A DNA stretch of 64,000 nt from Candidatus Obscuribacterales bacterium (GTDB lineage: Bacteria > Cyanobacteriota > Vampirovibrionia > Obscuribacterales > Obscuribacteraceae). Positions 4,623-7,749 of this stretch are shown one piece after another. How positions within the stretch are numbered: position 1 is the stretch's first letter; each line of letters starts with the position of its first letter. Where the stretch lies: positions 2,272,001 through 2,336,000 of the forward strand of contig CBDDIJ010000003.1 in the NCBI GenBank assembly GCA_965228855.1, in the 5' to 3' direction. A model generated the notes under the pieces. It ran no database searches and was not told where the DNA came from. It worked only from the letters and a program-made list of their open reading frames with translations. Both the position numbers and the translations under genes were made by a program.

Positions 4623-6014
4623 CTACTCGGGAGCCGTCATCTTGAACGGATCGAGCAATTCGTCCAGTTGATTCTCGGTCAAGTTTGTCGTCTCAAGGGC
4701 AATCTCACGAACAGTTTTTCCGCTCTCGAAAGCCTGTTTCGAAATTTTCGCGGAAGCATCATATCCGATTGCCGGTACGAGCGCGGTAGACAAAGCCAAT
4801 CCTCGCTCAACTAGTTCAGGACCACGTTCTGTCGCCTTGATACCATCAACACACTGTCGCGCAAAGTTCTCGGCAGCCGAAGCAAGCAGGTTTATCGATT
4901 CCAAAAGATTGTAAGCGGCAACCGGCATCATAACGTTCAACTCAAAATTTCCGGATTGTCCGGCAATTGAAACGGTCGCGTCATTTCCTATGACCTGGGC
5001 TGCCACCATAGCTAGTGACTCAGCAATCACCGGATTGACCTTTCCGGGCATAATCGAACTGCCCGGTTGGACCTCAGGAAGAGCAATCTCGCTGAAGCCG
5101 GCACGAGGACCGCAGCCGAGCCAGCGAATGTCATTTGCTATTTTGATCAAACTGCACGCAACTGTTTTCATCACACCAGACGCGTCAACAACTTCATCCA
5201 AAGTACTTTGAGCTTGGAAATGATTAGTCGTCTCGGTAATCTGATAATCGATCATCTTCGAAAGCTTTTCCAGAACGCGACCGGCGAAATCACTCCTGCT
5301 GTTTATTCCGGTACCGACGGCGGTGCCACCGAGAGCTACCGAACTGAGCCTGGTGAAGGCGTAGACAACCCGTTCGCGGGCGCGCTCGACCTGACCGGCG
5401 TAACCAAGAAATTCCTGCCCAAGCCTTATTGGAGTGGCATCCTGTAAATGTGTCCTGCCGGTTTTAATCACAGGCATGAACTCATCTGACTTCTGACGCA
5501 GACTCTTCTCAAGCAATGTCAGAGCCGGGTGCAAACGTTCTTTCATATCAATAATTGCGGCGACATGAATCGCCGTAGGAATAGAATCGTTCGAACTCAC
5601 GCCTTTATTGACATGGTCGTTCGGATGGACGAGCCCGCGGTCGCCAAGCTTGCCACCCAATATCTCAATAGCCCGGTTAGCAATAACCTCGTTAGCATTC
5701 ATGTTGGTCGAGGTGCCGGAGCCGGTCTGGAAAATGTCAACTGGAAATTCGGAATCGTACTTGCCATCTGCCACTTCCCTGGCGGCCTGCATAATCGCAT
5801 CGGCGTGCTTTGCATCAAGCTCCTGAAGTTCCTTATTAACCTCAGCACAGCAATATTTGATCAACCCCAGCGCGCGAATGAAAGATCTTGAAAAGCGCAA
5901 ATTGGATATCGGAAAGTTCAAAACCGCTCGTTGCGTGCTTGCACCGTAATATGCGTTGCATGGTACCTGCATCTCGCCCATCGAGTCTCGCTCAATTCTT
6001 GTCTTCTCAGCCAT
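4623..6014 (-). CDS. fumC: Class II fumarate hydratase
   Basis: RIERDSMG, FQTGSGTSTNMNANEV, HPNDHVN, KTGRTHLQDATP, GSSIMPGKVNP signature. Start placed at MAEKTR (6014). Confidence 0.95.
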   Translation of the reverse strand: MAEKTRIERDSMGEMQVPCNAYYGASTQRAVLNFPISNLRFSRSFIRALGLIKYCCAEVNKELQELDAKHADAIMQAAREVADGKYDSEFPVDIFQTGSGTSTNMNANEVIANRAIEILGGKLGDRGLVHPNDHVNKGVSSNDSIPTAIHVAAIIDMKERLHPALTLLEKSLRQKSDEFMPVIKTGRTHLQDATPIRLGQEFLGYAGQVERARERVVYAFTRLSSVALGGTAVGTGINSRSDFAGRVLEKLSKMIDYQITETTNHFQAQSTLDEVVDASGVMKTVACSLIKIANDIRWLGCGPRAGFSEIALPEVQPGSSIMPGKVNPVIAESLAMVAAQVIGNDATVSIAGQSGNFELNVMMPVAAYNLLESINLLASAAENFARQCVDGIKATERGPELVERGLALSTALVPAIGYDASAKISKQAFESGKTVREIALETTNLTENQLDELLDPFKMTAPE

Positions 6015-6270
6015 CACAAGTCCCTTGATTACTTTCAAATCGGCGGACACGATCGTAACGCCGCCGGAACGCCCCATTGTGGCAGAATGGAGTCGAGAAT
6101 TCCTGAGATCCGGTCTTGGCCGTTCTCATATATAGGTAGAAGTTATTTTTCTAGATCTCGGACATGCGTCAAGAGCCTGATCGATAGAGCTTTTACATCA
6201 CAAGAGAATGAAACTCACACGCACGCAGTATAAGCTTTGTATATATACTTCATCTCCATTAGCCACCAAA

Positions 6271-6291
6271 GGCGCCACCACTGTAGTCCCA
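6271..6291. promoter_or_regulatory. Conserved 21-bp upstream element of ncRNA copy 1 (GGCGCCACCACTGTAGTCCCA)
   Basis: Identical 21-mer at 6676-6696 upstream of copy 2, while the flanking sequence has diverged. Confidence 0.6.
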
Positions 6292-6367
6292 CCGATCAGT
6301 CATATCGCATATCGCCGAAAACCACTGCACGTCCTGACTTCTTGGCAATATTTACCACGTTAGAATC

Positions 6368-6413
6368 AAATGTCTTATGGGGTACTTCCAATATCTATTC
6401 CAGGTGCTAAACT
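6368..6413 (+). promoter_or_regulatory. Promoter of ncRNA copy 1 (extended -10 TGcTAAACT, upstream GGGGTACTTCCAA)
   Basis: TG at 6405-6406 and TAAACT at 6408-6413. AAATGTCT and GGGGTACTTCCAA blocks are shared with copy 2. Confidence 0.7.
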
Positions 6414-6417
6414 AATG

Positions 6418-6632
6418 ACATAAACGGTGAGCACACACCAAATGGTTGAGTGCGTTGAGCCGAGGGGCCTTACGGAAACGCCAGACGGCGCCGTTCGGAA
6501 ACGGTAGTAAGTGAGCCCGCACCACGCTGACATCTGATGCGCACGTGATGAAATACTGTGCCTTTCGCAAGGGGCACATCAGACAGTAGCTAAAACACCG
6601 CTCGAGAGAAATCTGAGTGGTGTTTTTGTTTG
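6418..6632 (+). ncRNA. Structured non-coding RNA, copy 1 (family not recognised)
   Basis: Near-identical to 6820-7035. No conserved ORF of note. Multiple helices: GCAC/GTGC, GGGC-CTTAC/GTAAG-GCCC, CGCC/GGCG, CCGTT/AACGG, TCTGATG/CATCAGA. Promoter upstream, intrinsic terminator at the 3' end. Confidence 0.8.
6592..6631 (+). terminator. Intrinsic terminator of ncRNA copy 1
   Basis: AAAACACCGCTC-g-AGA-GAAA-TCT-GAGTGGTGTTTT stem with a GAAA loop, followed by a T-rich tail. Confidence 0.8.
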
Positions 6633-6675
6633 CGCGCCCATGAGCATATCGAACGCATATCGAATAGTCACCACC

Positions 6676-6696
6676 GGCGCCACCACTGTAGTCCCA
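6676..6696. promoter_or_regulatory. Conserved 21-bp upstream element of ncRNA copy 2
   Basis: Identical to 6271-6291. Confidence 0.6.
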
Positions 6697-6769
6697 TAGC
6701 CTATTAATGATCTATATTCCGGAAACCGCACAGCAAGCGGATACTGACAATAGCGATTCGAGATCTCTT

Positions 6770-6815
6770 AAATGTCTAAAGGGGTACTTCCAAGATCTCG
6801 CTTCGATGCTATACT
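6770..6815 (+). promoter_or_regulatory. Promoter of ncRNA copy 2 (extended -10 TGcTATACT)
   Basis: TG at 6807-6808 and TATACT at 6810-6815. GGGGTACTTCCAA at 6781-6793 has the same spacing to the -10 as in copy 1. Confidence 0.75.
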
Positions 6816-6819
6816 AATT

Positions 6820-7035
6820 ACATAAACGGTGAGCACACACCAACACGGTTGAGTGCGTTGAGCCGAGGGGCCTTACGGAAACGCCAGACGGCGCCGTTCG
6901 GAAACGGTAGTAAGTGAGCCCGCACCACGCTGACATCTGATGCGCACGTGATGAAATACTGTGCCTTTCGCAAGGGGCACATCAGACAGTAGCTAAAACA
7001 CCGCTCGAGAGAAATCTGAGTGGTGTTTTTGTTTG
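6820..7035 (+). ncRNA. Structured non-coding RNA, copy 2 (family not recognised)
   Basis: Identical to copy 1 except AACAC replaces AAAT in the first hairpin loop. Ends in the same terminator, which faces the convergent response regulator gene. Confidence 0.8.
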
Positions 7036-7086
7036 TGCATTAGTAGCGAGCTTTGAATGTATTCGGAACAAAGTTGCCGCTCGTGT

Positions 7087-7749
7087 CTAAATCAAACCTT
7101 CACGCATGGCTTTGACTGCGGCTTGTGTACGATCGGACACGGCCAGCTTCTCCATGATGTGTCGCATGTGAGTCTTGACAGTCTCGACGCTTAAAACGAG
7201 CTTGTCTGCAATTTCTTGATTGGTAGACCCATCTACGACCAACCGCAATACATCCAGTTCGCGAGATGAAAGTGTAGAGGCTGGGTTTGCTTTTTCATCC
7301 TCTCGGTCTTTGCCACCCGTTCCGATAGAACGCAATACTCGACCTGCAATTCCAGGATCAAGCCAGGCAACTCCCTCAGCAACGGCCTTGATTGCCATAA
7401 CCAATTGCTGTGACGGCGCTTCCTTCAAGCAGTAGCCATCGGCACCTGCAGAGAGCGCAGCAAATACATGACGGTCGTCATCGTGCGAAGTCAACATTAT
7501 GATTCGCTGGTCGGGACTGTCGGTCTTGATCTGTTTAGTCGCCTCAATCCCATTGAGAACCGGAAGTCCAATGTCCATTAACACCACGTTGGGTTTCAAT
7601 GCCAGAGCAGTTGCAACCGCTTCTTGACCATCCTGAGCAACTCCAAGAACCTTGATTCCGTAGTTTGCCTCAAGAATTACCTTGAGACCTACTCGCGCAA
7701 TCTCCTGGTCCTCGACAATCACAACTGATATGCCAGTATCTTCGACCAT
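7087..7749 (-). CDS. NarL/LuxR-family response regulator
   Basis: REC domain (IVED, LMDIGLP, MLTS, YCLK) plus LuxR HTH (LSSRELDVLRLV..G.TNQEIA..L.LSVETVKTH). Confidence 0.95.
   Translation of the reverse strand: MVEDTGISVVIVEDQEIARVGLKVILEANYGIKVLGVAQDGQEAVATALALKPNVVLMDIGLPVLNGIEATKQIKTDSPDQRIIMLTSHDDDRHVFAALSAGADGYCLKEAPSQQLVMAIKAVAEGVAWLDPGIAGRVLRSIGTGGKDREDEKANPASTLSSRELDVLRLVVDGSTNQEIADKLVLSVETVKTHMRHIMEKLAVSDRTQAAVKAMREGLI

Follow-up and report, generated by a model that had tools for sequence, protein, structure and literature searches.

A tandem pair of poplar-1 RNA genes in an Obscuribacterales genome: predicted anatomy, host range and a proposed mode of action

The window analysed here (the whole 64-kb stretch of a Candidatus Obscuribacterales genome) contains a direct repeat of a ~400-nt unit in two copies, whose starts lie 402–403 nt apart (Table 1). 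The RNA bodies of copies 1 and 2 are identical at 211 of 213 aligned positions, and the sole change between them falls in the loop that caps the 5' hairpin. Upstream of each RNA, by contrast, identity drops to 66% over 185 nt. A preliminary description of this DNA had noted the two-copy repeat with its change in a hairpin loop, the diverged spacers and an extended −10 box 4 nt 5' of the conserved block, and our comparison confirms all three. The identity of the two neighbouring genes was supported by orthologues in L231, of which the fumarase (92% identical) matches Pfam Lyase_1 and FumaraseC_C and the response regulator matches Response_reg and GerE. A simple promoter/terminator scanner reported no promoter and no terminator on the + strand, and the single-sequence fold of one copy gave z = −2.22, with 4 of 200 shuffles equally good.

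Table 1 Features of the poplar-1 locus (window positions; transcript ends are predicted).
Feature	Position	Strand	Basis or remark
Fumarase C gene	4623..6077	−	ORF; divergent upstream neighbour, outside RNA unit
41-nt upstream repeat, copy 1	6251..6291	+	Repeat comparison; core ACCACTRTAGT
Promoter element, copy 1	6367..6387	+	AAA-N8-GGGGTACTT; ends 20 nt 5' of −10 box
Extended −10 box, copy 1	6405..6413	+	TG-c-TAAACT; inferred transcription start near 6420
poplar-1 RNA copy 1, full predicted transcript	6420..6631	+	Ends inferred from promoter and terminator
P1 hairpin with predicted standard kink-turn	6425..6462	+	Homologue fit and covariation
P1 NC stem	6425–6428/6459–6462		GA 6429–6430 and 6457–6458; 3-nt bulge 6454–6456
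P1 C stem	6431–6438/6445–6453		Bulged 6446; 8/8 pairs compensatory
P2 domain	6465..6518	+	Helices 6465–6468/6515–6518 and 6470–6473/6507–6510
P2 pseudo-symmetric 10x10 loop	6474–6483 and 6497–6506		RGANACNNYA on each strand; cap hairpin 6484–6496
Self-complementary cap tetramer GCGC	6488..6491	+	Candidate kissing or dimer site
P3 hairpin	6520..6550	+	7/7 pairs compensatory; loop 6534–6538 in pseudoknot
P4 hairpin	6554..6588	+	GCAA tetraloop 6567–6570; 3' bulge 6578–6582 pairs with 6534–6538
Intrinsic terminator, copy 1	6594..6631	+	Hairpin and U-tract, covariation
41-nt upstream repeat, copy 2	6656..6696	+	Repeat comparison
Promoter element, copy 2	6769..6789	+	Conserved upstream element
Extended −10 box, copy 2	6807..6815	+	TG-c-TATACT; inferred start near 6822
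poplar-1 RNA copy 2	6822..7034	+	Rfam match 6857–6996 and repeat identity
Copy 2 kink-turn hairpin	6827–6865	+	
Copy 2 P2 domain	6868–6921	+	
Copy 2 pseudoknot domain	6923–6991	+	
Copy 2 terminator	6997–7034	+	
LuxR-type response regulator gene	7087..7749	−	ORF; convergent downstream neighbour, outside RNA unit

An Rfam scan of the whole window returned exactly two matches, both to poplar-1 (RF03041; Rfam type 'Gene; sRNA'), at 6454–6593 and in the second copy. Each scores 125.1 bits against a gathering cut-off of 110.5 and spans model positions 1–141, so that the earlier assignment of these RNAs to an unrecognised family does not stand. At E<=10, the only further Rfam match in 6380–6680 was to a snoRNA (12.7 bits), which we judged to be chance. 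The poplar-1 motif was reportedly first described by Weinberg et al. in 2017. The word 'poplar-1' is absent from the main text of PMC5737381, and our full-text literature search found a single paper that names it, a study of drinking-water metatranscriptomes that lists poplar-1 among the RNAs enriched inside cells (bioRxiv 10.1101/2025.10.18.683149). The RNAs in the window share with RF03041 a full-length model match and the same central and 3' helices, but the transcript predicted here is ~70 nt longer, with the 5' kink-turn hairpin and the terminator lying outside the model; the Rfam alignment as printed begins within the kink-turn and shows no pseudoknot. The window pair are thus real genes of an already catalogued sRNA family without an assigned function, to which our analysis adds the host order, the copy number and the promoter element, though the original 2017 drawing or supplement may already show part of this.

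The fold was evaluated in 84 homologues of <93% identity, kept from 125 full-length copies and then aligned, and in an enlarged set of 139 copies. Across the 84 sequences, 95.1% of the cells of the full ~210-nt fold are paired and 53 of 60 pairs carry compensatory (two-sided) change, the covariation whose absence, by the preliminary description, would refute its non-coding RNA call. None of 500 shuffles reached this level, and slid controls had 33–39% of cells paired, a comparison that favours the fold since it was drawn from the same 84 sequences. RNAalifold returned the same nested helices from the alignment, a structure-blind mutual information analysis ranked the helices of the fold highest, and the consensus helices of poplar-1 are kept with compensatory change. 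A small ORF was considered and set aside: across homologues the longest closed reading frame ranges between 13 and 53 codons, with no common length.

Some details of the fold drawn earlier need revision. Two central hairpins (CGCC/GGCG and CCGTT/AACGG) find no support in the alignment, where 59% of their cells are paired, as in shuffles (83 of 500 as high). The pairing proposed between 6533–6539 and 6577–6583 is upheld, though as a pseudoknot between the P3 loop and a bulge in P4 rather than as a nested stem; its pair 6533/6583, canonical in 15 of 84 homologues only, was dropped. The terminator hairpin and U-tract are likewise upheld, with compensatory change in 11 of 12 pairs, whereas the GAAA cap noted before is specific to the window copy (G..A stands at the two ends of the loop in 44 of 84 homologues). 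An alternative helix to the terminator was not seen.

By sequence pattern, P1 is a predicted kink-turn. The standard arrangement of C stem, 3-nt bulge, tandem G.A/A.G and NC stem (as defined in PMC5061560 and PMC4914095) recurs in 82/84 homologues and in 133/139 of the enlarged set, and position 3b is G and 3n is U in 139 of 139 copies. Kink-turns that fold in ions alone follow the rule '3b = C or 3n = G' according to PMC4914095; the P1 combination lies outside this rule, and the motif should therefore need a tertiary contact or a protein. The twin strands of the P2 loop hold the most invariant unpaired letters of poplar-1: RGANACNNYA is strict on both strands in 69 of 84 homologues, with G2 and C6 each present in 84/84 on either strand and A10 in 83/84 and 84/84. 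Together with its paired flanks, this module matched only poplar-1 copies in the window's genome (4 matches). Across the loop, G6475–Y6505 and Y6482–G6498 are canonical in 168 of 168 cells, with one-sided change only; as covarying pairs they had support equal to shuffles and were rejected. Also set aside was a long-range pair between the bulged base 6446 and loop base 6505 (G-C 39, U.U 79, A-U 14 and other 7 of 139 copies), which ranks 23 by corrected mutual information, shows ~2–3 independent changes, was significant in no test and is retained as a lead only.

The P2 cap carries a tetramer that is self-complementary in 83 of 84 homologues (GCGC 68, GCGU 9, ACGU 6, other 1). Among 139 copies, its central CG is present in 137 and its outer pair is canonical in 137 (G-C 111, A-U 14, G-U 12); on the tree, both bases of this pair, 6488/6491, changed together about 7 times. 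The five pseudoknot pairs (6534–6538/6578–6582) are canonical in 96–99% of the 139 copies and three of them show about 4–8 shared changes on the tree; a sign test on well-supported branches had too few pairs for significance.

Upstream of the RNA, a GGGGTACTT-like 9-mer preceded by AAA lies 46–48 nt 5' of P1 in 127 of 143 copies and 20–21 nt 5' of the −10 box, and TAnnnT occupies the −10 position in 135 of 143 homologues. In the enlarged set the element is present in 219 of 253 upstream regions, several of the misses being mis-anchored. A genome-wide matrix search returned four poplar-1 promoters as the four best element matches. When the element and box were sought loosely together, 6 of the 12 matches in the window's genome were its six poplar-1 genes, and no site elsewhere in that genome combined the element with a well-placed −10 box, so that the search for a wider regulon gave no clue to function. 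By motif search, then, the element is nearly exclusive to the poplar-1 genes of this genome, and its restriction to these six genes points to a dedicated regulator. The core of the 41-nt upstream repeat occurs ~147 nt 5' of P1 in 9 of 143 upstream regions, all in one subfamily, and was not found elsewhere in the window's genome; it is possibly a second operator of this subfamily.

Of 24 public runs listed as sharing sequence with the locus, 5 are recorded as RNA; four of these, from four studies, were examined as contigs, and 19 runs with small shares were not counted as evidence. All four metatranscriptomes, which were preselected as runs containing the sequence, yielded contigs from the RNA bodies (6434–6601, 6833–6992, 6834–6987 and 6845–7007), and these take in the 5' hairpin beyond the Rfam model. 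No contig of the four runs covered the promoter or spacer, and the fumarase gene was represented by one stray 39-nt piece. The contigs establish presence in RNA libraries rather than ends, strand or level. The combination of own promoter and terminator, covariation, 1–12 copies per genome and presence in four metatranscriptomes supports the earlier reading of a structured, stand-alone, dosage-amplified sRNA.

The Rfam model detected poplar-1 in 37 of 39 relatives of the same order (34 of 36 in the same family and 3 of 3 others) at 1–12 copies each, and in 0 of 21 genomes of other orders. The window's genome has six copies: the window pair, a triplet and a singleton. A full-length model built here, with 15 candidates per genome scored, was positive in 31 of 32 genomes of the order. 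It gave only 2 marginal matches among 117 genomes of the class outside the order (E about 0.001–0.002; the one inspected was a terminator only) and 1 marginal match among 149 genomes of the phylum. Three genomes of the same family (G024, G026 and G133; 86–97% complete) had no poplar-1 by either model, so the RNA is not essential everywhere; they form a natural contrast set for a partner search.

Pattern matches in titled species genomes comprised 52 true copies and 28 chance hits (of 80). The true copies carried the titles Obscuribacter(ales/aceae) (36), Melainabacteria (2), cyanobacteria (5), 'bacterium' (4) and other (5), and the window's flanks recur at 92% identity in a locus that bears an Obscuribacterales title. 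For the three loci whose titles name Proteobacteria, Bryobacterales or Oculatellaceae (L166, L190 and L233), a host of that kind was rejected because the matches of their genomes coincide with genomes of family f1. Carriage by phages was rejected as well: none of 120 loci found with a loose pattern matched the full-length profile, and of two found with a strict pattern, one held a real but 3'-broken copy that we read as an assembly chimera. In that contig, which comes from a viral collection (L368:1-1554), the 5' part of poplar-1 is fused to a 448-aa frame that we take to resemble an RNA-virus polymerase; this contig is likely a chimera involving an abundant RNA.

Tandem poplar-1 copies are more alike than their spacers. 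The two RNAs of the window are 99.1% alike, their spacers 66%, and both resemble at 97.6% the RNA of genome G007, where the corresponding locus (L330, G007:C6:92500-96500; flanks 92% identical to window 6233–7090) holds a single copy. DNA upstream of that copy is like copy 1 (89%) and DNA downstream like copy 2 (79%), a pattern that suggests an older duplication with RNA bodies homogenised by gene conversion, followed in G007 by copy loss or assembly collapse. Arrays reach nine copies in other genomes. In the longest, L373 (G188:C8:163000-182999), nine copies that are 82–99% alike are interleaved with genes on the opposite strand, most of which encode Ser/Thr kinase paralogues of ~580 aa that are only 35–52% alike; this kinase array has perhaps expanded by recombination between RNA copies. 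Selection for dose would account for these copy dynamics, but so would frequent recombination among copies alone.

The surroundings of poplar-1 vary widely. Downstream of 101 copy contexts (a few of them redundant) lay a same-strand gene in 44, an opposite-strand gene in 37, another copy in 11 and a contig edge in 9. No neighbouring gene was conserved with poplar-1 in these contexts: the largest cluster held 9 of 140 neighbour proteins, and neighbour functions are unrelated. Since the neighbours are unrelated and randomly oriented, the RNA is expected to act in trans. One subfamily (L014, L191, L211, L218, L227, L230 and others) occupies a fixed place 5' of an M16 peptidase (9 contexts) and dUTPase (7 contexts) gene, perhaps the ancestral poplar-1 locus.

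We tentatively propose that poplar-1, amplified for dosage, works in trans as a folded RNA whose twin loop sequesters a symmetric protein partner. Transcription from the RNA's own promoter element and extended −10 box would give a ~210-nt transcript ending at its own terminator. Comparison shows that the RNA folds into a kink-turn hairpin, a rod with a two-fold pseudo-symmetric, purine-rich loop, a pseudoknotted two-hairpin domain with a GCAA tetraloop and the terminator. Beyond this, we suppose that the compact fold offers a surface for binding in trans, with no seed pairing involved. The putative binding site is the near-invariant twin RGANAC loop. Its simplest partner would be a protein or complex with two-fold symmetry (a dimer), which the RNA would sequester stoichiometrically. 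Sequestration would explain the recurrent tandem amplification, the homogenised copies and the regulator site reserved for these genes. We consider protein titration the likeliest mechanism, as a proposal that may well prove wrong. Redundant, multicopy trans RNAs that have a terminator and, upstream, a site for a dedicated activator are familiar from the CsrB/RsmY/RsmZ sponges, which carry many GGA hairpins. In poplar-1, ANGGA occurs in a loop in 68 of 84 homologues, but the window copies are without it, the RNA is one compact tertiary fold rather than many GGA hairpins, and of 101 genomes of the order 3 encode CsrA.

Several familiar RNA-binding proteins do not fit as partners. CsrA, L7Ae-family proteins, TROVE/Ro60 and Hfq all returned zero matches in the window's genome, and across the order L7Ae was found in 7 of 101 genomes and TROVE/Ro60 in 6 of 39 relatives. 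The rarity of CsrA, L7Ae and Ro60, the lack of a conserved gene neighbour and the three family genomes without poplar-1 all weigh against protein sequestration, and the loop, with its symmetry, might just as well be a tertiary module of the RNA itself (a double T-loop) that involves no protein. The L7Ae-family matches of genus g19 (L380 and L381; 6 of 6 genomes) lie in open frames of 427–756 aa and are possibly fusions. A role as stand-in for RNase P, tmRNA or SRP RNA was rejected, as the canonical genes are present elsewhere in the window's genome; its tmRNA (C2:2199557-2199945; Rfam 137.7 bits) was missed by ARAGORN. The same genome (G000) has a 21-gene tRNA array at C3:724500-728000, a second small cluster at C3:1529700-1530700 and a selenocysteine tRNA at C5:146551-146649. 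6S RNA had no match in this genome or 7 congeners, and weak 6S matches occur alongside poplar-1 in 18 of 39 relatives of the order, which tells against a stand-in for 6S.

If the twin loop binds without a protein, it might clamp tRNA as a tRNA-elbow double T-loop module. The parts list of poplar-1 (kink-turn, pseudoknot and terminator) is reminiscent of T-box leaders, and, as in RNase P, two GNNA-ending pentamers are arranged with pseudo-two-fold symmetry around a capping helix. G2 together with A5 is present in 82/84 and 81/84 homologues for the two pentamers, which gives four of the six core residues of AGNNA...UGNNA described in PMC3664808 (the module is also treated in PMC4810234). The 5' closing A and U are needed according to the former source, but the first positions in poplar-1 are G/A and G/A, with A in 12 of 84 first pentamers and U in 1 of 84 second pentamers. 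In addition, the invariably possible one-sided pairs between G2 and Y9 of the other strand would break a T-loop, the flanking spacing is symmetric and unlike that of RNase P in the window's genome, and no specifier or T-box antiterminator was seen, which leaves a tRNA clamp unlikely. A fuller version, in which the loop would be a double T-loop variant in a kink-turn/pseudoknot-braced, cap-dimerised RNA that acts in trans on tRNA or the translation apparatus by binding, with its own regulator and an order-wide, near-housekeeping role, seems to us similarly doubtful; if true, the tRNA-elbow module would for the first time be found in a free-standing RNA. Self-association through the palindromic cap, by a kissing loop or extended duplex, could coexist with protein sequestration, though RNA-only dimers or oligomers as the working unit are improbable to about the same degree as a tRNA clamp. 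Here the evidence is the conserved central CG and outer pair with its shared changes, the 2-nt loop that a monomer would leave, and a self-duplex favoured over two hairpins by a mean of 17 kcal/mol (4–6 for the other three hairpins), a preference that follows from the palindromy of the cap. According to PMC12990946, natural RNA dimers often associate through palindromic and kissing interfaces. The OLE, ARRPOF and HYER dimers are analogues of the dimer proposed here. Intra- and intermolecular pairing, however, yield the same covariation, some copies have an extra loop nucleotide, and compact tetraloops with an internal pair exist as a counter-example.

Likeness to the cyanobacterial Yfr2 RNAs, which had been pointed out before, holds for the shared GAAAC word and fails for the model match and the loop topology. 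Yfr2/Cyano-1 (RF01701) genes are, like poplar-1, multicopy and often tandem, have their own promoters with a conserved upstream element (from near −55 according to PMC6191309) and a consensus with GGAAAC twice, and the two families are distributed in complementary fashion, Cyano-1 occurring in 19 of 61 phylum genomes and in none of poplar-1's class. These parallels favour a role for poplar-1 in Obscuribacterales like that of Yfr2 in cyanobacteria, the regulation of mRNAs or other sRNAs by base pairing. Yet Yfr2 RNAs are about 70–100 nt long with one hairpin and a motif in a 12-nt apical loop, whereas the poplar-1 motif lies in a two-stranded internal loop; the Cyano-1 model is unmatched in 6380–6680 at E<=10 and in the genome, and the full-length poplar-1 model is unmatched on Yfr2 loci. 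Yfr2 pairs with Yfr1 through a single-stranded 5' motif (PMC6778093), and neither this GUGAGGAG motif nor the 12-nt apical GAAAC loop was found in poplar-1, whose conserved letters sit in structural motifs and whose host genome has no Hfq. Yfr2 is thus a look-alike only, and a base-pairing role is a poor prospect. Equally poor is that of a ligand-binding or catalytic RNA in trans (a ribozyme or aptamer candidate): a pseudoknot and many near-invariant nucleotides are what PMC5737381 asks of 'biochemically sophisticated' RNAs, and the junction letters are invariant as well, but the RNA is confined to one order, matches no further Rfam family at E<=10 beyond the chance snoRNA hit, and has a 3' terminator at odds with self-cleavage according to the same source. 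A cis-acting riboswitch or attenuator would accommodate an aptamer-like fold followed by a terminator, and the subfamily 5' of the M16 peptidase or dUTPase gene, but this reading is largely refuted and very improbable. In 48 of the 92 contexts with an identified downstream element, that element is an opposite-strand gene or another poplar-1 copy; the gene downstream in the window is convergent, the terminator pairs covary without an alternative helix, and poplar-1 is not the 5' leader of a coherent gene set, as a riboswitch or T-box leader would be. Just as remote is the idea that the repeat is mobile or recombinogenic DNA, or that assembly produced it, although the G188 arrays with their kinase paralogues, the many copies at contig ends and the single copy in G007 might point that way. 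Covariation that tolerates G-U pairs, RNA motifs, a promoter and terminator on every copy, diverged spacers with separate promoters and the absence of terminal inverted repeats all argue against this, as do three public runs that contain 0.93 of the words of 6200–7100, though these may be the source sample.

The poplar-1 locus in itself is ordinary, since the family was already catalogued. What is gained is a testable anatomy of an orphan RNA (its predicted ends, kink-turn, covarying pseudoknot, invariant symmetric loop, palindromic cap and private promoter element) and a host range of nearly all Obscuribacterales, at up to 12 copies per genome. These bacteria are non-photosynthetic relatives of cyanobacteria, and our literature search found no paper on their RNA regulators. 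At 210 nt, and being rigid, the RNA lends itself readily to probing or cryo-EM, and a new RNA–protein regulatory system could come to light in a pull-down.
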